Below are positions 2,010-53,636 of a stretch of DNA of 64,000 nucleotides, piece after piece. The stretch is from a virus (taxonomy: Duplodnaviria > Heunggongvirae > Uroviricota > Caudoviricetes): the IMG/VR virus record IMGVR_UViG_2925891887_000001; one strand, written 5' to 3'. The number at the start of each line of letters is the position of its first letter. Position 1 is the stretch's first letter. Under the pieces are notes generated by a model. It searched no databases. It saw only the letters and a list, made by a program, of their open reading frames with translations, and was not told the origin of the DNA. A program made the position numbers and the translations under genes.

Positions 2010-3569
2010 CTAATCTCGTTTCAGAACTCCAAAATCGAATGCGCCATCAACAGGCAATACACCTTCTGCAAAGCCAGGTGTGGTGTCGATGATGTGTTTT
2101 CGCTCATAAGAGTGAGACAACAGGTATTTGTTGCTAATGTCAATGAAATCAGTGATAAAACACACGTTTGCCTGATTCTTCTTGGCTCGTAAGCCACGAC
2201 CGACACGTTGTCTCATTTCAACTTCTGCTTTCCCACCACCAGCAAGAATGACCGCACCAACGCTTGGCACATCAACACCGACATCCAGAATAGTCGAGCC
2301 TATTAAAACATCTATGTCGCCAGACGCTAAACTGTTCAGCTTTGCTTGCCTTGTCGACTGGTTCGATTCCCCATAAATGAAGTCAACTCTAAGGCCGGAC
2401 TCTTTCATCATTTCCATCAGGATTTGCCCGTGGCGTTTAAGACGAACCAGAGTCATACAATTGAGAGAATGTTGCTTATAGAGCAATGCTTCGCGAACAA
2501 TGGCCTCATTACGTCCCAAATTATACACGATCCCCAACTGATAAGCCTTTTGGTAGGCAGTGCTCATACCTACTCTAAAATTGAGGTGTTTGTTGGCAAG
2601 TTCTGCCTTGATTCTGGCCTCGTCCGGCTTGTAGGCAACTTTATGATAAAGGAAGTATGGCTTTGCCAGAATGCCTCTATCAATCAGGTACTTTTCCGTG
2701 ACTTTTATTTCAATTCGCCCGGCCACTGCCATCAGACGCATGTTGGCTTCCGTAGAATCCTTCATGAACGGCGTTGCCGTAAGCGCCAGGCGATAGTCTG
2801 CGTTCGCACATAATCTGGCAATGTCATAGAAATTAGAGCCTGAAGACTCATGCGCCTCTTCCAGAATAAGAAGAGAGACACTTGAAAGGAAGCGTTTCAC
2901 CAAGTCCCGACGTTTGAGGTGGTAGCTCTTCTTATCTGGAGTTGCATCGCGTGGTGGTTCTTCAAGGAAACTTGCCAGAGTTTGAACTGTAGCGACGTTG
3001 ATATGTCGTGATACCTGGAACTCACCCGAGCCAATGACTCCAACCTTTTGGTCTTTTAACCACGGTTCGCCATTTTCGGCGCGGTAGTCGATGGATCTCT
3101 GGAAGTTTTCGGCCATCTGAAACATCAGAACAGAGCGGGTTGTTAAAAATAATGTCATTCGACCGATACGTGCAGCTGCTTTGCAGGCAACATTAGATTT
3201 CCCGCCACCAGTAGCGATCTGCGCAATCATCATTCCCTCTCGAACCAGTGTTTCCACAGTCTGATCCTGATATGCATAATCAGGATTGTATGGGAATGGG
3301 TTGACCGCCGGATTTGGCTTTCCAAGCGCCGGAGCTTTGTCTTTGCGGATATGAACACATTTGATGCCCGCCTTGTTCAAGTTCGCCGCTACAGGCTTGG
3401 CAAAGCCAGCAGGGAACGAGTTTTTACTCCAGTTGAACATCGTGCTTGTGCCCTTCCAGTCGCCAGTCTCGACTTCGTAGCTCAACATCTGTTGCACCAG
3501 TTGCTTTACCTTGTCATCTGCGCCAGAAATAAGTGCATTTACTGCGTTAGATACAATCCGAACAGTCAT
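2010..3569 (-). CDS. Superfamily 2 DNA/RNA helicase (DEAD/DEAH-like)
   Basis: Walker A TGGGKS, motif II LILEEAHE, motif III LTATP, motif VI QRVGRGLR in the 519-aa translation. Confidence 0.75.
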   Translation of the reverse strand: MTVRIVSNAVNALISGADDKVKQLVQQMLSYEVETGDWKGTSTMFNWSKNSFPAGFAKPVAANLNKAGIKCVHIRKDKAPALGKPNPAVNPFPYNPDYAYQDQTVETLVREGMMIAQIATGGGKSNVACKAAARIGRMTLFLTTRSVLMFQMAENFQRSIDYRAENGEPWLKDQKVGVIGSGEFQVSRHINVATVQTLASFLEEPPRDATPDKKSYHLKRRDLVKRFLSSVSLLILEEAHESSGSNFYDIARLCANADYRLALTATPFMKDSTEANMRLMAVAGRIEIKVTEKYLIDRGILAKPYFLYHKVAYKPDEARIKAELANKHLNFRVGMSTAYQKAYQLGIVYNLGRNEAIVREALLYKQHSLNCMTLVRLKRHGQILMEMMKESGLRVDFIYGESNQSTRQAKLNSLASGDIDVLIGSTILDVGVDVPSVGAVILAGGGKAEVEMRQRVGRGLRAKKNQANVCFITDFIDISNKYLLSHSYERKHIIDTTPGFAEGVLPVDGAFDFGVLKRD

Positions 3570-3633
3570 AAACCTCTTTCCTTAGTGCCTTTTGTATGTT
3601 ATTTGGCTATTATAATAAGTAAGTGATTACTTA

Positions 3634-4332
3634 ATGGATTGTAGCAATAAAATGGATGTAAAAATCACGATTTTGCAGGTTGATGTTGCCAACCTTCGCC
3701 CGAATACCTGGAACACCAATTCGGTTGGTGCGCAGAATTTCGAAAAACTGAAAGGTTCTATCGAAAAATTGGGCTTTTTTAAGCCAATTTTGGCTCGTGA
3801 ACTTGAAGATGGATTTTTTGAAATCCTCGGCGGCGAACATCGCTGGCGTGCCGCTATTGAGCAAGGAATTTCAACGGTTCCGGTGCTTTCTGTGGGCAAA
3901 ATTAGCGATGTCGTAGCTAAACAGATGTCACTGGTGGACAACGAGCGATACGGTGAAGACGACCAAATCGCATTGCAACGCTTCATTGAAGAAATTCAGT
4001 CAGAGCTTGACTATCAACTGTCTGAAATCGCCCCGTATGACGACGAAATCTCGATGGTTTTAGCAAAAGAGGCGGCAATCGACCTTGAAGCACTGGAGGC
4101 GTTGTCTCGTGGTAGTGATGAGCCTGTCGATACCGACAAACGAGAGAAAACCGAACGTGTGGGTGCGGAACATCAGACCATGCGCTTCAAAGTAACTTTC
4201 GATGCGTCAGATCGTGTTGCAGAAACCATAAAAAACATCATTAAAGAGCAGGCTATTAACACCGGTAATGAAATGGAGAACGCTGGTGAGGCTCTGGTGT
4301 GGCTGGTCGACTACTACAAGGAGCGTATGTAA
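3634..4332 (+). CDS. ParB-like nuclease domain protein
   Basis: N-terminal ParB/Srx-like segment (ARELEDGFFEILGGEHRWRAAIEQGISTVPV); start could instead be the ATG near 3652. Confidence 0.55.
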   Translation: MDCSNKMDVKITILQVDVANLRPNTWNTNSVGAQNFEKLKGSIEKLGFFKPILARELEDGFFEILGGEHRWRAAIEQGISTVPVLSVGKISDVVAKQMSLVDNERYGEDDQIALQRFIEEIQSELDYQLSEIAPYDDEISMVLAKEAAIDLEALEALSRGSDEPVDTDKREKTERVGAEHQTMRFKVTFDASDRVAETIKNIIKEQAINTGNEMENAGEALVWLVDYYKERM

Positions 4333-30406: not shown

Positions 30407-33400
30407 ATGTGGTACAGGGAAGGTACTATCACATTTACACAGGGCAGCAATACTCTGGTTGGGGCAGGGACAGCCTGGAACGTAACAGCTAATGGTGTGT
30501 TGCCGGGGATGATCGTCATTGGCCCCGACAATAAGCTGTATGAGATCAAGCGCGTAACCAGTGATACGAACATTGTTCTCTCAGAACCTTATACCGGCGA
30601 AACTCAGTCTGAAGTTCCGTGCCGAATCATTACGACCTATGAAGGCGACTTAACACAGTTTAGCGCGCGCTTTACTGCGCTAATGTCGCGTATGTCGGCT
30701 GATTCCAAGTCCATACGCAGTTGGTTGACTGCGCTGGATGAGGTGACAATCGAGCGTGAAGACGGTACAGAAGTGACCGTTAAGCCGCTAATGCAGATCG
30801 TCAACGAGCACAACGAAAACGTTGAGTGGTATAAAAATAACACTGACGCGATTGATGCTGCTGGCGACAAAGCTCGTGAGGCGGCGGCCAGTGCTGCCGC
30901 AGCAGCAAAAAGCGCCAATGCCGCTGGAGAAAAAGCCTCTCAAGCGTCTCAAAGTGCATCCGCTGCGGCATCCTCACAAAGTGCCGCAAGTGCGAGTGCA
31001 ACTGCTGCGAAAAAATCTGAAACGAATGCTGCAGCGTCACAAAAATCTGCAGCCACTTCTGCATCCACCGCGACCACGAAGGCGTCAGAAGCTGCCACCT
31101 CAGCCCGGGATGCGGCGGCCTCAAAAGAGGCAGCGAAATCATCAGAAACGAGCGCAGCCTCGAGCGCCAGTAATGCCGCTTCCTCGGCAACGGCGGCAGG
31201 AAATTCCGCGAAGGCGGCAAAAACGTCCGAGACGAACGCCAGGTCTTCTGAAACGGCAGCGGGACAGAGCGCCTCGGCTGCGGCAGGCTCAAAAACAGCG
31301 GCTGCGTCGTCTGCCAGTGCCGCGTCAACAAGTGCCGGGCAGGCCTCAGCCAGTGCCACCGCCGCCGGAAAATCGGCAGAAAGTGCCGCATCGTCTGCTT
31401 CAACTGCCACAACGAAGGCTGGCCAAGCCACTGAACAGGCCAGCGCAGCAGCGAGGTCTGCTTCCGCAGCGAAGACATCCGAAACGAACGCGAAAGCGTC
31501 GGAAACCCGTGCAGAATCCTCAAAAACGGCAGCCGCATCGTCCGCCAGTTCGGCGGCGTCATCGGCATCATCGGCGTCTGCTTCAAAAGATGAGGCGACC
31601 AGACAGGCGTCAGCAGCGAAGGGCAGCGCCACGACGGCATCCACGAAAGCAACAGAGGCGGCAGGCAGTGCGACGGCAGCATCTCAGAGCAAAACTGCTG
31701 CTGAATCCGCTGCGACCCGTGCGGAAGCTGCTGCTGATCGTGCTGAAGAGATTGCCGGTGCAGTTGCGATGGAAGACGCAAGCCTTACAACTAAAGGTGT
31801 TGTGAAACTTAGCAGTGCTGTCGACAGCACCAGTGAATCGCTGGCCGCAACGCCAAAAGCAGTTAAAGCAGCCAATGACAATGCGAATAGCAGGGTGCCA
31901 TCTAACCGAAAAGTTAACGGTAAAGCACTGACTGCGGATATCAAATTAACGCCGAAAGATATTGGTACTTTAAATTCAGTAACGATGTCTTTCTCTGGCG
32001 GGGCAGGGTGGTTCAAACTGGCTACGGTTACCATGCCACAAGCGAGTTCCATCGTTTACATCGCATTGATTGGTGGCGCTGGTTACAACGTCGGCTCCCC
32101 ACATCAGGCAGGCATTTCAGAACTGGTTCTACGAGCAGGCAATGGAAACCCCAAAGGGATTACAGGTGCTTTGTGGAAGCGTACAGCTGTCGGATTAACG
32201 AATTTCGCCTGGATCAACACATCCGGCGATACATATGATATTTACGTTGAGATTGGCAATTATGCGACTCGTGTAAATATCCATTGGGATTGTACTGCAA
32301 ATGCGACAGTTTCTATTTATACCTCGCCAACATATTCAGCGAGTAAGCCTTCCAGCGTTACCGATGGTGTTGTTTATACGATGTATAGCACACATCAGAA
32401 ACCGACGCCGTTAGATATTGGAGCACTGCCAACAACCGGAGGAACAGTTTCAGGTCCGTTGTCTGTTACAGGTGGATTAACTGGTTCATTGAATGGTAAT
32501 GCAAGTACAGCCACGAAATTGCAGACGGCAAGATCTATCGGTGGAGTTGTTTTCGACGGTTCTGCAAATATTAACCTTCCAGGTGTAAACACTACGGGTA
32601 ATCAGAACACCACTGGTAATGCTGCAACTGCTACAAAACTTCAGACTGCAAGAAAAATATCCGGTGTTCCATTTGATGGTTCTACTGATATCACTTTAAC
32701 CGCTGCGCATGTTGCCGCTTTCGCAAGAAGGGCAACAGGGTCATATGCGGATGCTGATGGTGGCGTGCCGTGGAATGCTGAATCTGGTGCTTACAATGTA
32801 ACTAGAACAGGCGACACCTATATTCTTGCCAACTTTTATACCGGTGTAGGTAGTTGCCGGACCCTGCAGATGAAGGCGCATTACAGAAATGGAGGTCTGT
32901 TCTACCGTTCCTCAAGAGATGGCTATGGTTTTGAAAGTGGTTGGGAGCAGGTTTACACGACTGGATTTATGCCTCAGCCGGCTGATATAAACGCGCCAAC
33001 CGCTGCCGCTGGATGGTTAAATAGTGGTAACGGAACGGCATTTACGACTGCTCAATTTATAACTTGGCTAAATAATCAGGGGGCATTTACAAACAAACAT
33101 TGGATCGCACGGTGCTCATGGACTTACGCCAACAATAATTATATAGACGACACTGGTTGCGGTAGGATCGATCTATCTGGTTCCGTGATTGAGGTGTTTA
33201 GTAATAAGGCAACAAGCCACTACACTATTCGTGTTACAACGACAACAACATCGGGTCATGGTGGTGTTAACAATGCGGAATTTATTTATGTGTACAATGG
33301 AAGTGATTATGCACCAGGCTGGCGTCGTTCTTATAACACTAGAAACAAACCAACAGCTTCTGATGTAGGAGCATTACCGCTTTCAGGTGGCACATTATCT

Positions 33401-50749: not shown

Positions 50750-51527
50750 AAACATATTGATAAGTATTTACTTACTTATCTTTTGTGTATAAGATGACTT
50801 TGTTTTCGTTGAGACGCGACTGTTTGAACTTAAATACAAGTGCAAACGAAGAAGTCTATCTGGCAGTAGCCTAATAAGCCAAACACCAGCGAGGTCAGTT
50901 TCCAGCCTCGTTACCGAAATGGGACACACTGAGCGAGTGTGATTGCAGAACGCAGGAGGGAACATTCATGTTCCCTCCGATGAAGTAACAGAATGGGCGG
51001 TTGGTATATTTTCAACTCCATATGACTCCCGGATTCTTAGCCACTGACCGCCCATCCTGTTACGTCATTTTGTTCAATTATGTCGTTTATACTGGGTTAA
51101 AAAGCGGCGACGTAGCCCGGCTGGTATGGTTAGCCAGCACACAACGTTGAGGCCATTACATTTTTATCAATTCTAAGGTTCTATTCACAGAGATACCGGC
51201 GAGCGTTGATATGTAACATGTTGGGCAAACATTCAATCGGAGTAGTGGCCTCAACGTTGTGAAGACGGGATTGTTGTGTAGGTTTAACCACTGTTGCCAT
51301 TGGTGCCTGTTTTCACAACAAATGATTCCATACATCACATTGTATAAATTACAAAGTAGGTGCTGTCCTCAGAAACATCATCTACTTAAAGATTTTGCCT
51401 TCTACTATTGAGCGAAGTCGAAAGCGTCTGGCACTAACGAAAAGTGCAAGTAGCGGTGCGTTTCCTGGCAGAAACTAAACCGTCGCGATTGGCACTGTTG
51501 AGTAATAAATACTGGCAGTGCTGAATT

Positions 51528-51602
51528 GATGGTGTAGCTCAGCGGTAGAGCAGTTGGCTGTTAACCAACTGGTCGGTGGTTCGAATCCACCCACCATCGC
51601 CA
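51528..51602 (+). tRNA. tRNA-Asn (anticodon GTT)
   Basis: Manual fold: acceptor gatggtg/caccatc, D-arm tagctcagcggtagagca, anticodon loop ctGTTaa, T-loop ggttcgaatcc, encoded CCA. Confidence 0.8.
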
Positions 51603-51607
51603 ATTTA

Positions 51608-51694
51608 GGGGAGTTAGTCCGTAGAGGTAGCGGTGTAGACTGTAAATCTACTGTCATGGCGACTCGGGTGGTTCGACTCCATCACTCCCCACCA
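51608..51694 (+). tRNA. tRNA-Tyr (anticodon GTA), long variable arm
   Basis: Acceptor ggggagt/actcccc, anticodon loop ctGTAaa, long variable arm, T-loop ttcgact, encoded CCA; D-arm pairing weak. Confidence 0.7.
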
Positions 51695-51698
51695 AATT

Positions 51699-51774
51699 GC
51701 CGGTTTAGCTCAGTTGGTAGAGCAGTCGCTTTGTAAGCGAATGGCCAGCGGTTCAAGTCCGTTAACCGGCACCA
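51699..51774 (+). tRNA. tRNA-Thr (anticodon TGT), tentative isotype
   Basis: Acceptor gccggtt/aaccggc, D-arm tagctcagttggtagagca, anticodon loop ttTGTaa, T-loop ttcaagt, encoded CCA. Confidence 0.7.
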
Positions 51775-52094
51775 ACACAACAGGTAAGAGCATTGGGCGA
51801 ATCGGCGATACTGACCCACAAGGCCGTAAATCGATAGAGTCAGACCAGTGCTCTTACCGTTGTGAGGAAGTGCAGCTCTTTGAAGCAACCAGAAGATAAG
51901 CATCTGGCTTCACAACACAACGATAATATCATTACGGTTAATCGTCGTTCATGTGCACAATGACTGGTCGAAAGGTAGTGATCTTACCGTTGTGATGAAT
52001 GCACAGGCTGATGTGCCGCAACTACAGTAGTGCGCGCTTTGCGGGGCTTGCTACAACCCTGTGTCGGAGTTCAGCACCGACCATCACAATAGCT

Positions 52095-52181
52095 GGAGAG
52101 TAGGGAGCATGGTGCTCAAGCGGTCTTGAAAACCGTCCCATTGTGCAAACGATGATGGTTCGATTCCATTACTCTCCGCCA
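52095..52181 (+). tRNA. tRNA-Ser (anticodon TGA), atypical D-arm
   Basis: Acceptor ggagagt/actctcc, anticodon loop ctTGAaa, long variable arm, T-loop ttcgatt, CCA; D-arm lacks canonical GG. Confidence 0.55.
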
Positions 52182-52335
52182 GACACAGCGTTGAGCGGTT
52201 TGGCCTTTTAATCAACTCGATTAAGACTCCGCTAACATAAACCAGACCGCTCAACGCTGTGATAGATAATTACGGCAGACGTTCTTAACCATAGCTTGCT
52301 AACATCCTAGCAACACTTTTTTCAGCGCAAAATTC

Positions 52336-52358
52336 AAAGGGGCTTCGGCCCCTTTTTT
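52336..52358. terminator. Bidirectional rho-independent terminator
   Basis: aaaggggc-ttcg-gcccctttttt; serves plus-strand tRNA cluster and minus-strand gene ending at 52374. Confidence 0.8.
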
Positions 52359-52373
52359 GTTGAACAGTGCAAT

Positions 52374-53636
52374 TTACTTTGCATAGTCGCCCAATTTTAA
52401 TATTTCGCGCTTATATTCATTAACCATGCTACTGGATTCAGTATAAATTCGATTTAAAAGATTATCGTTATCTTTATTTTCATTTATCTTAATTAGTGCT
52501 AATTTATATTCATAGTCATCAAATGCCACAATTAAATGGTGGCCTGGGATTATATCTTCGTCACTCTTAAAGTATATATCTTCAAGTATGTAATCTAGTT
52601 GATTAGATTTTCTTTTCTCGATGTAATCTTCAGCCATAGCTATTACATCATTCCTGTCATTTAACCTGTTTTTTTCGGAAGGCACATCTTCGTAATGTTG
52701 CACGATTGAACAACCAATAAGGCGTGGGATGTAAACGTCAAAATGAGTAACTCTATCATTCGCGGTTTTAAGTAGTTCCTCAAAGTAGTTTCTTACATGT
52801 AAAGGCAACTTCTCAAAGTAATCATTAATTATAGGAGAACAAGGAGTTTTATAATTCATAAGAACCGACGGTACGAGCTTTGGGTGTCGAAACATCCAGT
52901 CCCTTTTAACGTCCGATGGAACATAATAACTTTTAATGATATTATCAAAATAATTTATCATTCGAGATTTGAATATTTTGTTGAATCTAAGGTTTATGAA
53001 TGTATCCAGATAAGGCATATTTGAATAAGCATCATCAAAAAATATTTCATCATTGAAAAAATCATATTTATTCAATAAACAACACAGTTTTTCCGAATTA
53101 ATATGTTCACAATAATCGATTTTTAATCCAAAGATAGCAATGATCAACTTCATCTGAGGTGGGATTTTAAAAATTAATTGTGACACATACGCTCTTTTTT
53201 CCTTGAGACATTCCCCATCAATATAAAATGAACCATCCACATACTCAAATATATTAATAATATGCTTCACATACTGTATTACCTCATGCTGTCTTACCAA
53301 TGGATAATATAGTCTATGTAACTCATCGCTGTTTAAATTAATTTTGTGTTTATCGATAATTTGTTTTGCAAGAAGACATAACTCATCATGTTGATTTAAT
53401 AAGGAATCAAACCATTGTTTAAATGCACTCTTTCGCATTTCGAACAATGATTCAGTTGTTAATTGAAGGGCTGAAAAAGCTGCTTTTGCACTTTTTCTCG
53501 CTTCGTAGGCATTCCATGCTGTTGCTATAAAAGCAAATGCTGTAGCCAATGTTCCAACAGTTTGACCATTTAAAACAACCCAATCCCAAAAAATGACGGT
53601 GAGCAGTAGTATAATAATGAAAATTAAAAAAGGCAT
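52374..53636 (-). CDS. Hypothetical membrane protein, low-GC cargo gene
   Basis: 420 aa; N-terminal hydrophobic segments (FLIFIIILLLTVIFWDWVV; LATAFAFIATAW); strongly AT-rich; only minus-strand gene here. Confidence 0.5.
   Translation of the reverse strand: MPFLIFIIILLLTVIFWDWVVLNGQTVGTLATAFAFIATAWNAYEARKSAKAAFSALQLTTESLFEMRKSAFKQWFDSLLNQHDELCLLAKQIIDKHKINLNSDELHRLYYPLVRQHEVIQYVKHIINIFEYVDGSFYIDGECLKEKRAYVSQLIFKIPPQMKLIIAIFGLKIDYCEHINSEKLCCLLNKYDFFNDEIFFDDAYSNMPYLDTFINLRFNKIFKSRMINYFDNIIKSYYVPSDVKRDWMFRHPKLVPSVLMNYKTPCSPIINDYFEKLPLHVRNYFEELLKTANDRVTHFDVYIPRLIGCSIVQHYEDVPSEKNRLNDRNDVIAMAEDYIEKRKSNQLDYILEDIYFKSDEDIIPGHHLIVAFDDYEYKLALIKINENKDNDNLLNRIYTESSSMVNEYKREILKLGDYAK

Follow-up and report, generated by a model that had tools for sequence, protein, structure and literature searches.

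Introduction

tmRNA (SsrA; Rfam RF00023 and the permuted forms RF04321/RF01850) has always been described as a tRNA-like domain joined to a messenger domain, in one or two pieces. The tRNA-like domain has a 7-bp acceptor stem with a G3:U70 pair, a T-arm and a 3′ (N)CCA, and is joined by helix 2 to a messenger domain in which pseudoknots and a hairpin flank a short ORF. This ORF has neither a start codon nor a Shine-Dalgarno sequence and encodes a degradation-type tag ending in hydrophobic residues and Ala (ANDENYALAA in E. coli), which is added to stalled proteins with the help of SmpB. There are also tag-less tmRNAs with only the tRNA domain, such as that of mycobacteriophage DS6A (PMC11915505). 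Other RNAs are encoded beside phage tRNAs: the T4 species 1 and 2 RNAs (rnaC, rnaD) are structured, stable small RNAs with no known function that directly follow the last tRNA of the T4 cluster, tRNA-Arg. RNase P also cuts substrates other than tRNA 5′ leaders, including the 4.5S RNA precursor, the P1 and P7 c4 RNA precursor and some tRNA 3′ trailers. In lambdoid prophages, the anti-sRNA AgvB, encoded downstream of PR′, carries the CACAACA consensus target of the GcvB R1 seed (PMC4104026). At the DNA level, integron attC sites are imperfect palindromes with RYYYAAC/GTTRRRY cores that bound gene cassettes.

Here we analyzed a 64,000-nt stretch of an SSU5-like phage-plasmid of the Caudoviricetes (IMG/VR record IMGVR_UViG_2925891887_000001; hereafter the window). 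An earlier note, made from the sequence alone, had pointed to about 1.4 kb of ORF-free structured DNA around a tRNA cluster, with a repeated family of hairpin arms, and had proposed structured non-coding RNAs, degenerate tRNA-like elements, a replication origin or small MITE-like repeats as candidate explanations.

Organization of the tRNA region

The region proved to be as the earlier note had observed it, although its coordinates required small corrections and some elements had been overlooked. No ORF longer than 73 aa was found between 50750 and 52373, none of them credible, and a Pfam search of the two flanking ORFs returned no hit. Four tRNAs were confirmed. The inverted repeats were longer than noted: the first is a perfect 11-bp rather than a 9-bp stem, and two repeats with nearly the same arm sequence, hairpins A and D, have 20-nt rather than 16- and 15-nt arms (Table 1). 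Two further members of the family, hairpins B and C, had been missed, as had the tag-like mini-ORF at the 5′ end. The direct repeat CTTACCGTTGTGA, at 51853-65 and 51983-95, is the 3′ arm of hairpins B and C. Within the window the family is confined to 51140-52261.

The structure exceeds chance. Folding z-scores were −6.7, −5.9, −2.8 and −9.9 for the four hairpins, and −4.9, −5.6 and −6.2 for the three sub-regions. Conservation among ten SSU5-like relatives begins near 50799, and a strong intrinsic terminator closes the unit. A strict scan for σ70 promoters found no consensus site, but a possible weak promoter could be read from the sequence, and the T1-like relative Sf11 has a clear TTGACA-17-TAGATT at the equivalent place. 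Rfam searches reached threshold for no non-tRNA part of the region.

Table 1. Elements of the tRNA region and the observations on which they rest (positions in the window).
Position	Strand	Element	Observation
50767-50795	+	Possible weak promoter (TTTACT-17-TAAGAT), inferred	Just upstream of where conservation begins
50802-50809	+	Near-invariant 5′ motif GUUUUCGU of the tag RNA	Reverse complement of host ssrA nt 97-104 (ACGAAAAC, tag codons 3-5)
50807-50829	+	5′ stem-loop of the tag RNA	RNAalifold consensus, pairs conserved; a shorter UCGU/GCGA stem is common to all phage groups
50842-50877	+	Start-less 10-codon tag ORF, GCA AAC GAA GAA GUC UAU CUG GCA GUA GCC UAA UAA (ANEEVYLAVA, two stops)	38 variants with synonymous changes; weak tmRNA covariance-model hits
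50889-50911	+	Post-tag hairpin (GCGAGG/CCUCGU), at the position of tmRNA helix 5/PK2	Arms covary across phage groups
50925-50946	+	Small pseudoknot-like element (S1 CACAC/GUGUG, S2 GCGA/UUGC)	Counterpart of the H-type pseudoknot in other phage groups; S1 and S2 covary in the family
50955-50978	+	11-bp hairpin	Five of 11 pairs show changes on both sides in relatives
50980-51068	+	Long hairpin, 22-nt arms (50980-51001/51047-51068), variable 45-nt interior	Pairs kept, G-C/G-U changes only; interior not conserved
51106-51139	+	Conserved segment GGCGACGUAGCCCG plus hairpin GCUGG/CCAGC (51120-51138), directly before hairpin A	One compensatory G-C to A-U change
51140-51261	+	Family hairpin A, 20-bp stem (51140-51159/51242-51261), 82-nt interior	Three pairs show changes on both sides
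51256-51319	+	Alternative helix A′, GUUGUGAAGACGGG pairing with CCUGUUUUCACAAC; shares GUUGUG with hairpin A and leaves or exposes a CACAACA site	Compensatory in Klebsiella relatives (GUGGUCACGG/CCGUGGCCAC), as read from the alignment; MAFFT misaligns this region
51528-51602	+	tRNA-Asn (GUU)	tRNA prediction and Rfam
51608-51694	+	tRNA-Tyr (GUA)	tRNA prediction and Rfam
51699-51774	+	tRNA-Thr (UGU)	tRNA prediction and Rfam
51776-51864	+	Family hairpin B, bulged A at position 7	Starts 1 nt after the tRNA-Thr CCA
51916-51994	+	Family hairpin C	3′ arm plus flank, CUUACCGUUGUGAUG (51983-51997), matches GcvB nt 58-72 at 14 of 15 positions
52095-52181	+	tRNA-Ser (UGA), type II	tRNA prediction; scored by Rfam only as tRNA-Sec-like, just below threshold
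52184-52261	+	Family hairpin D (arms 52184-52203/52242-52261), conserved loop motif AAGACUCCGC	Starts 2 nt after the tRNA-Ser CCA
52336-52363	+	Intrinsic terminator closing the unit	Terminator prediction

A family of long hairpins folds on the tRNA strand

The four hairpins are paralogous, with stems of about 20 bp, 5′ CACA(A/G)C and 3′ G(U/C)UGUG ends and variable interiors. Related copies were found in SSU5-like, P1-like and lambdoid phages, and N4-like phages carry similar hairpins after their tRNAs. When 61 unique copies were oriented with the tRNAs, they contained 1105 Watson-Crick pairs, 74 G·U pairs and only 10 A·C mismatches, and stems were 19-21 bp on the + strand against 12-15 bp on the − strand, indicating that they fold as RNA on the tRNA strand. 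Compensatory changes were observed among relatives. Arms are conserved while interiors are freely exchanged among positional orthologues, as in P1, Ro157c2, CMS-2020a and the window copy after tRNA-Thr, which argues that the arms are the selected part. Copies that follow tRNAs begin 0-2 nt after the CCA of tRNA-Thr, tRNA-Ser or tRNA-Asn, always the last tRNA of a run, and this placement holds in more than 60 loci. In the window, however, hairpins A and C follow non-tRNA segments.

The interpretations offered in the earlier note were partly supported. Structured non-coding RNAs are supported by the compensatory changes, the G·U bias and the terminator. Degenerate tRNA-like elements are partly supported, because some copies in P1, in a CMS-2020a relative and in the N4-like phage vB_EcoP_3HA13 hold canonical T-arms, but the four copies in the window do not. 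A replication origin is not supported: 12 near-matches to the DnaA box were found in 64 kb against about 16 expected, only one of them near the region; GC content is 43-46%; no origin-type skew was seen, the local skew change coinciding with a switch in gene orientation; and the repeats are inverted and RNA-strand-specific rather than iterons. MITE-like repeats are not supported either, because the family occupies a single locus in the window, the region occurs at a median of one place per genome (range 1-3), 809 of 824 places are on plasmids, and no target-site duplications were seen in the flanking sequence.

A conserved RNA with a tmRNA-like tag ORF

An unexpected element lies at 50802-50950, upstream of the hairpins. 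It is a conserved RNA with a start-less ORF of exactly 10 codons, followed by a hairpin and a pseudoknot, for which no tRNA-like domain was detected. Across T1-like, Vi1-like, N4-like, lambdoid, P1-like and SSU5-like phages we found 38 unique ORF variants, all of 10 codons plus stop, conforming to A-N-[DE]-x-x-x-[LMK]-[AMVI]-[AV]-A; the predicted tag is ANEEVYLAVA in SSU5-type elements and ANDDLMMVAA in P1. All ten third codon positions vary, against 6 first and 5 second positions; codon 10 uses four Ala codons, codon 1 is GCA or GCT and codon 2 is AAC or AAT. The distance from the leader to the tag falls in all three phases, and most copies have an in-frame stop upstream and no start codon, so that the tag has no frame link to the leader. 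The post-tag hairpin and one H-type pseudoknot show many compensatory changes, although the SSU5-type copy in the window has only a minimal version. The 5′ motif GUUUUCGU was invariant in one of our alignments, was present in 127 of 132 modules found without requiring it, and was the longest complement to E. coli ssrA in nearly all of 151 unique modules. Homologous modules lie in the C1-controlled ban operon of P1 and between Q and the holin gene in lambdoid prophages.

To determine whether this RNA was a complete tmRNA, we searched for the tRNA-like half. ARAGORN found none in the window or in 189 related phage loci (1.58 Mb), whereas it did find the E. coli ssrA control. Rfam tmRNA covariance models aligned only the tag region, weakly and far below the gathering scores, and simple nucleotide alignment to E. 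coli ssrA was not significant; an RNAduplex comparison of the full-length RNAs was uninformative. The interior of the 50980-51068 hairpin could be read as a T-loop plus D-loop (UUCAACUCC, GGAUUC), but it is not conserved in relatives. A giant tRNA-like fold, with an acceptor stem GGCGACG/UGUUGCC and hairpin A as the anticodon arm, is not supported: all pairs hold, but there is no covariation, no T-arm and a variable discriminator base. A helix 2-like closing helix is not supported, since the leader and pre-pseudoknot segments show only 3-6 bp of inconsistent pairing. A permuted tmRNA, with hairpin A or the 50980-51068 hairpin as helix 2 enclosing the tRNA-like domain, was rejected because neither a T-arm nor an acceptor stem lies inside.

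We also considered that the tag might belong to a conventional small ORF. In the window an in-frame ATG at 50794 would give 26 aa, but indels shift the frame in relatives and most have upstream stops. The alternative +2 frame (AUG CAA ACG...) is not conserved in start or length. A match between the tRNA-Ser variable arm and the tag start (GUGCAAACGAUGA) is of a length expected by chance. Literature searches found no mention of a tmRNA-like element in P1 or SSU5-type elements and none of six tag peptides, and neither an Rfam family nor any paper searched describes the RNA. The idea that the PARIS system cuts tRNA-Asn and tRNA-Thr was not confirmed, the paper on it reporting tRNA-Lys.

A model for the region, and alternatives

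Taken together, we interpret positions of about 50.80-52.36 kb as a single non-coding transcription unit, read on the + strand, with three kinds of product, a reading to which we give a probability of about 0.55. The first is a tag RNA of roughly 150-340 nt, with the layout of the messenger half of tmRNA. The encoded peptide is under purifying selection, so it is very probably decoded, most plausibly through the host trans-translation machinery, although without a detectable tRNA-like domain no known route exists for decoding a start-less ORF. The second comprises the four tRNAs, and the third the four hairpin RNAs. We propose that the hairpins act as surrogate tRNAs, or as processing and stability punctuation: each would fold on its own as it is transcribed and would offer RNase P a long coaxial helix, and perhaps RNase III a 20-bp duplex, so that cleavage would free the 3′ end of the upstream tRNA or tag RNA and leave stable hairpin RNAs, as with the T4 species 1 and 2 RNAs. 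Because the hairpins of the window lack T-arms and an encoded CCA, recognition by RNase P is only an analogy, and the conserved stem ends and the conserved loop of hairpin D suggest functions beyond punctuation. The anatomy, the RNA-level folding, the conservation, the peptide-level selection and the distribution are established by the analysis; the promoter, transcription as one unit, the processing enzymes and the accumulation of stable products, the function of the hairpins, and the way in which the tag is decoded, including any alanylation, SmpB binding or tagging of stalled proteins, are inferred from sequence alone.

A less likely alternative is that the hairpins are stand-alone stable small RNAs derived from tRNAs, with functions carried by their loops or ends, such as an anti-Shine-Dalgarno seed AAGACUCCGC in hairpin D or decoys for tRNA-binding or tRNA-cleaving proteins; their placement after tRNAs would then only reflect co-processing. 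Consistent with this view, the hairpin D motif is kept in E. coli, Klebsiella and Enterobacter versions although the adjoining loop sequence differs and the stems carry compensated substitutions, the interior of hairpin B is conserved in a Klebsiella element that has different outer arms, and the T4 species 1 and 2 RNAs occupy the same position. By contrast, the exchange of interiors between conserved arms speaks against it.

Two further readings appear improbable. In one, the region would sponge or imitate GcvB, as AgvB does, because GUUGUGAUG resembles the R1 seed itself, the 3′ arm of hairpin C matches GcvB, and potentially unpaired CACAACA sites lie at 51314-20 and 51911-21. However, most motifs are locked in 20-bp intramolecular stems, 2% of shuffles reach a 15-nt match, and only a subset of arms has the CUUACCG extension. 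In the other, the tag-like ORF is a decaying fragment of a former phage tmRNA, or a chance look-alike, that is no longer decoded. The missing tRNA-like domain, the weak covariance-model hits and the non-significant ssrA alignment would fit, but a relic would not keep length, frame, stop and residue classes through synonymous changes in 38 variants across six groups of phages. It is more doubtful still that the hairpins act as DNA recombination sites shuffling tRNA and hairpin cassettes. The content of tRNAs and hairpins is combinatorial among close relatives, indels are bounded by CACAAC motifs or tRNA ends, and the hairpin ends contain AAC...GTT, but ordinary recombination between repeats explains the indels, and the G·U against A·C asymmetry points to RNA folding of one strand. 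A replication origin or a cluster of MITEs, for which only the ORF-free, inverted-repeat-rich character of the region speaks, is very unlikely given the results above.

A more speculative possibility, doubtful on present evidence, is that the tag RNA is a viral counterpart of the messenger half of tmRNA that works through the host's own tmRNA. In this view, its 5′-terminal GUUUUCGU (up to UAGUUUUCGUC) would pair with codons 3-6 of the host ssrA tag frame and block or displace the host template, so that ribosome rescue would either be shut off or add a phage-specified tag (…LAVA, …MVAA, …LMAA) in place of …ALAA, changing the fate of rescued proteins during phage growth. That would be a new class of RNA, present in P1, SSU5-like, lambdoid, T1-like, Vi1-like and N4-like phages. 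In any case, a messenger-only relative of tmRNA under clear peptide-level selection, spread across at least six groups of enterobacterial phages including the model phage P1, would need either a new way of decoding a start-less ORF or a viral takeover of host ribosome rescue. The hairpin family also changes how these genomes should be read, since ORFs such as P1 plp and upl overlap the hairpins on the opposite strand. SSU5-type plasmids carrying the region occur in about 14% of complete E. coli genomes, and in Yersinia pestis pMT1 the caf1 capsule operon sits immediately after the first hairpin, so the locus is also a hotspot for cargo insertion.

Comparison with known systems

Like integron attC sites, which are imperfect palindromes of 60-140 nt, the hairpins have conserved ends and variable centres and bound cassettes of variable content. 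Their ends, (A)CACAAC/GTTGTG(A), do not fit the attC cores, the strand bias indicates RNA folding, and no integrase-sized ORF is adjacent to the region in the window or in annotated relatives. The non-tRNA substrates of RNase P are likewise long hairpin helices cut at their 5′ end, and c4 comes from P1, which also carries this hairpin family, but no RCCA follows the stem here and cleavage is inferred by analogy. With AgvB the region shares the CACAACA motif on a phage-borne RNA, and related hairpins lie downstream of PR′ in lambdoid prophages; AgvB, however, is 51-60 nt long with an exposed 5′ seed and its own terminator, whereas here the motif is mostly base-paired inside long hairpins and no terminator follows each hairpin. 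Like the hairpins, the T4 species 1 and 2 RNAs are encoded on the same strand as the tRNAs, and both are presumably cut from the same precursor. T4 rnaC has a canonical T-arm and a multi-branched fold, while the hairpins of the window are simple 20-bp stems, and there is no sequence similarity.

The tag RNA resembles tmRNA in its start-less ORF beginning GCA AAC GA, of exactly 10 codons as in E. coli, in the A-N-D/E-...-A peptide with double stops in the window copy and several relatives, in the U-A at positions −5/−4 in the SSU5 and P1 copies, in the hairpin and then pseudoknot that follow the ORF, and in its location next to tRNA genes. It differs in that no acceptor stem, G3:U70 pair, T-arm, CCA or helix 2 was found, in being much shorter with one pseudoknot, and in carrying a 5′ motif antisense to the host tag. 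It is the mirror image of the tag-less tmRNAs such as that of DS6A.

Four tRNA genes and a family of long hairpins in an ORF-free region

The window belongs to an SSU5-like phage-plasmid, and the best matches were Escherichia phages CMS-2020a and Cyrano and identical E. coli plasmids. No ORF of more than 73 aa was found between the stop codon of a 96-aa ORF on the + strand and a 420-aa ORF on the - strand. ARAGORN and Rfam both detected tRNA-Asn, tRNA-Tyr, tRNA-Thr and tRNA-Ser in this interval, all on the + strand. The tRNA-Ser(UGA) called by ARAGORN was scored by Rfam only as tRNA-Sec-like (44.8 bits, threshold 47), and the D6 record notes that tRNAscan-SE could not assign it, suggesting that it may be an atypical type II tRNA. 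Some E. coli plasmid relatives of the window (hits H79, H82, H87 and H88) carry tRNA-Arg or an unassigned tRNA in place of Thr or Asn, indicating that the tRNA set of this operon is exchanged frequently.

The inverted repeats listed in the earlier note were all present, with arms slightly longer than it had stated, whereas two further members of the hairpin family had been missed. The observation of an ORF-free, structured region around the tRNA cluster is thus confirmed. The region folded far better than shuffled sequence, with z-scores of -4.9, -5.6 and -6.2 for three sub-regions and of -6.7, -5.9, -2.8 and -9.9 for the four family hairpins, and it ends in a strong intrinsic terminator. The 420-aa ORF has 31–38% GC and no Pfam match, and it sits in the variable slot that follows the RNA operon. 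Relatives carry other cargo there, such as an AbiGi-family protein in a Klebsiella plasmid. The ORF is a possible defence or accessory gene. Elsewhere in the window, two adjacent weak matches to the isrG Hfq-binding RNA model (18–21 bits, far below threshold) were probably due to chance.

Coordinates of the features described in the text (window positions unless a locus is named)
Feature	Position	Strand
Two adjacent weak isrG matches	30973-31346	-
Stop of the 96-aa ORF	50749	+
Weak hits of permuted and beta-type tmRNA models	50750-50925	
Tag RNA	50802 to about 50950, perhaps to 51139	
Stretch matching a CRISPR annotation	51128-51160	
Hairpin A	51140-51261	
Blocks AAUGAUUCCAUACAUC and CGUCUGGCACUAACGNAAAGUGCAAGU	51321-51345 and 51421-51455	
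Hairpin B	51776-51864	
Hairpin C	51916-51994	
tRNA-Ser(UGA)	52095-52181	+
Hairpin D	52184-52261	
Loop of hairpin D	52210-52232	
Intrinsic terminator	52336-52363	
420-aa ORF	52374-53636	-
plp/upl region, locus L002 (phage P1)	1575-2144	
Sub-threshold STnc100 match, locus L002 (phage P1)	2183-2302	
Homology to the window and caf1R-caf1M, locus L014 (Yersinia pestis pMT1)	2305-4107, equivalent to window about 51262	
abiF RNA motif, locus L135 (Rosenbergiella nectarea prophage)	3688-3724	-

The hairpins are conserved as RNA of the tRNA strand

Each of the four copies has a stem of about 20 bp that begins CACA(A/G)C and ends G(U/C)UGUG, with either a G-C pair or a bulged A at position 7, and an interior of 38–82 nt that is unrelated between copies. 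Within the window the family occurs only in this region. To examine the family more widely, we collected 61 distinct copies from SSU5-like plasmids and phages (E. coli, Salmonella, Klebsiella, Enterobacter, Citrobacter, Cronobacter and Yersinia pMT1) and from P1-like phages (P1, D6 and SJ46). Further copies lie in lambdoid prophages, and N4-like phages carry similar long hairpins after their tRNAs, with related ACA...UGU ends. When oriented with the tRNAs, the stems held 1105 Watson-Crick pairs, 74 G.U pairs and only 10 A.C mismatches. Because a structure selected in double-stranded DNA would show G.T and A.C equally, the selected fold is RNA of the tRNA strand. Orthologues of hairpin A showed changes on both sides at three pairs, and across the family the arms differed by compensated substitutions (GUUGAGGCC/GGCCUCAAC, GUUGAGACC/GGUCUCAAC, GCGCUGAACGG/CCGUUCAGCGC and others). 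The 3′ arm of hairpin A can also pair with a downstream CCUGUUUUCACAAC, and this helix showed compensatory changes in Klebsiella relatives, indicating that neighbouring helices compete for the GUUGUG strand.

By contrast, the interiors are replaced wholesale while positional orthologues keep their arms, as in the copies after tRNA-Thr in the window, P1, Ro157c2 and CMS-2020a. Some interiors contain perfect T-arms, such as AGGGUUCGAAUCCCU in P1 and CAGAGUUCGACUCUCUG in a CMS-2020a relative, and the N4-like phage hairpins also hold one. Copies begin 0–2 nt after the CCA of the last tRNA of each run (Thr, Ser, or Asn when it stands alone), and the order tag - hairpin - Asn - (Tyr) - (Thr) - (hairpins) - (Ser) - hairpin recurs with combinatorial presence and absence. 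Two blocks between hairpin A and tRNA-Asn, AAUGAUUCCAUACAUC and CGUCUGGCACUAACGNAAAGUGCAAGU, were also nearly invariant across most SSU5-like relatives.

In Yersinia pestis pMT1 the homology stops right after hairpin A, the tRNA part is missing and caf1R-caf1M of the F1 capsule operon follows, showing that the locus is an insertion hotspot for cargo. In phage P1, the annotated genes plp and upl lie on the strand opposite to three hairpin-family RNAs, in sequence that is 85% identical to the ORF-free window region, and may be mis-annotations of non-coding RNA. Sub-threshold STnc100 (RF02076) matches (33–42 bits, threshold 47) were found just upstream of tciA in P1-like phages (P1 and loci L007, L008 and L009), directly after the last hairpin. 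A 33-nt stretch spanning the start of hairpin A is 100% identical to a sequence annotated 'CRISPR' in an E. coli chromosome (LR778147.1 1705873-1705905), which looks like a host spacer acquired from this phage-plasmid family.

A start-less ten-codon ORF is under purifying selection at the peptide level

Upstream of the hairpins, Rfam gave only weak hits of permuted and beta-type tmRNA models. The sequence there reads GCA AAC GAA GAA GUC UAU CUG GCA GUA GCC UAA UAA, which translates to ANEEVYLAVA followed by two stops and has the same length and start as the E. coli tag ANDENYALAA. The element was conserved in all SSU5-like and P1-like loci, and it also occurred well beyond them, in a Rosenbergiella prophage (ANDDYKLAAA), in E. 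coli lambdoid prophages between Q and the holin gene (ANDDLMLMAA and ANDDVVLMAA), in T1-like phages, where Sf11 gives it its own promoter, in Vi1-like phages (Cba120: GCU AAU GAU AAC ACG UUC CUG GCA GUA GCU, ANDNTFLAVA), and in N4-like (Gamaleyavirus) and Aeromonas phages. In all, 489 phage records matched. In the Rosenbergiella nectarea prophage, an abiF RNA motif (RF03085, 59 bits, above threshold) lies between the tag RNA/hairpin module and tRNA-Arg, so that another curated phage RNA motif shares this module.

Among 182 modules we found 38 distinct ORF sequences, all of 10 codons plus a stop (two other copies were truncated). All ten third codon positions varied, compared with 6 first and 5 second positions. 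Codon 10 was GCC, GCG, GCU or GCA, codon 1 was GCA or GCU and codon 2 was AAC or AAU, whereas the peptide stayed A-N-[DE]-x-x-x-[LMK]-[AMVI]-[AV]-A. The distance from the conserved leader to the ORF took all three phases, and most copies had an in-frame stop 5–7 codons upstream and no in-frame start codon. These results indicate that a start-less ORF is under purifying selection at the peptide level, which is the hallmark of a tmRNA message. The ORF is followed by a hairpin and an H-type pseudoknot, and both stems of the pseudoknot covary extensively.

By contrast, nothing resembling a tRNA-like domain was detected. ARAGORN found none in 189 phage loci (1.58 Mb) while it recovered the E. coli ssrA control, and Rfam found none in the whole window. 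Candidate acceptor, T-loop, D-loop and helix-2 readings were also considered, but all failed in comparisons with relatives.

The conserved RNA starts at (GAUA)GUUUUCGU. This 8-mer was present in 127 of 132 modules found without requiring it, and it is the exact reverse complement of ssrA nt 97-104, which are codons 3-5 of the host tag. The match extended to 9–11 nt in about half of 151 unique modules, and the phage tags themselves avoid that sequence. An 8-nt complement somewhere is expected by chance, and 2% of shuffles reached 11 nt; the weight of this point rests on the motif being the near-invariant 5′ core and on its hitting the tag frame.

Inferred functions of the RNA operon

Combining these results, we conclude that the region is an RNA operon. 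The folding, conservation and distribution of its elements and the selection on the tag peptide were established by sequence comparison, whereas what the hairpins do, which enzymes would process them and how the tag RNA would act are inferred. The features of the hairpins that are selected are the long helix and its position directly after a tRNA. We propose that the hairpins are tRNA-derived surrogates that punctuate the precursor, in which case RNase P cutting at the base of the helix would free the 3′ end of the preceding tRNA or tag RNA. RNase P cuts the 4.5S RNA and P1 c4 precursors in this way, and RNase III is a second candidate for a 20-bp duplex. For the tag RNA, action on or through host trans-translation ranks as the leading hypothesis, although it is still unproven.

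Some features point to extra roles for the hairpins. Hairpin D has a conserved loop motif, AAGACUCCGC, which is retained in its relatives in loci L006, L010 and L015 although the adjoining loop sequence differs. This motif is complementary to the Shine-Dalgarno-like GCGGAGUCUU and resembles the DicF core ACUCCG, and it could be an sRNA seed. In addition, CACAACA is the GcvB R1 target consensus used by the prophage anti-sRNA AgvB, and CUUACCGUUGUGAUG matches GcvB nt 58-72 at 14 of 15 positions, but 2% of shuffles do as well.

Of the candidates put forward in the earlier note, structured non-coding RNA was supported but a replication origin and MITE-like repeats were not, so that its interpretation held only in part. 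A relation to integron attC sites was also considered, but the ends do not fit attC cores and no integrase gene is adjacent. Neither a DnaA-box cluster nor origin-type skew was found, the local skew change matching the switch to a low-GC gene on the - strand. A MITE is excluded by the single locus in the window, by the absence of target duplications and by the occurrence of the region once per genome in 777 of 5426 complete E. coli genomes, with 809 of 824 places on plasmids.

Relation to known phage RNAs and tmRNA

No Rfam family covers the tag RNA or the hairpins. Full-text searches found no paper that links tmRNA-like elements to P1, SSU5, pMT1 or pHCM2, and none that contains any of six tag peptides, although prior mention in the P1 genome paper cannot be excluded. 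The P1 record annotates only a 'dicF-like region' just upstream. The 2025 tmRNA database paper lists 79 phage tmRNAs found with tools that need the tRNA-like domain, and it mentions tag-less forms but no domain-less ones.

The closest classical case for the hairpins is T4, where rnaD starts 1 nt after tRNA-Arg, rnaC follows it, and rnaC has a T-arm next to its 3′ end. We place the hairpins, as a new form, among the stable RNAs found in phage tRNA clusters. The tag RNA is likewise a new and widespread form of tmRNA, from which it differs in lacking the tRNA-like half.
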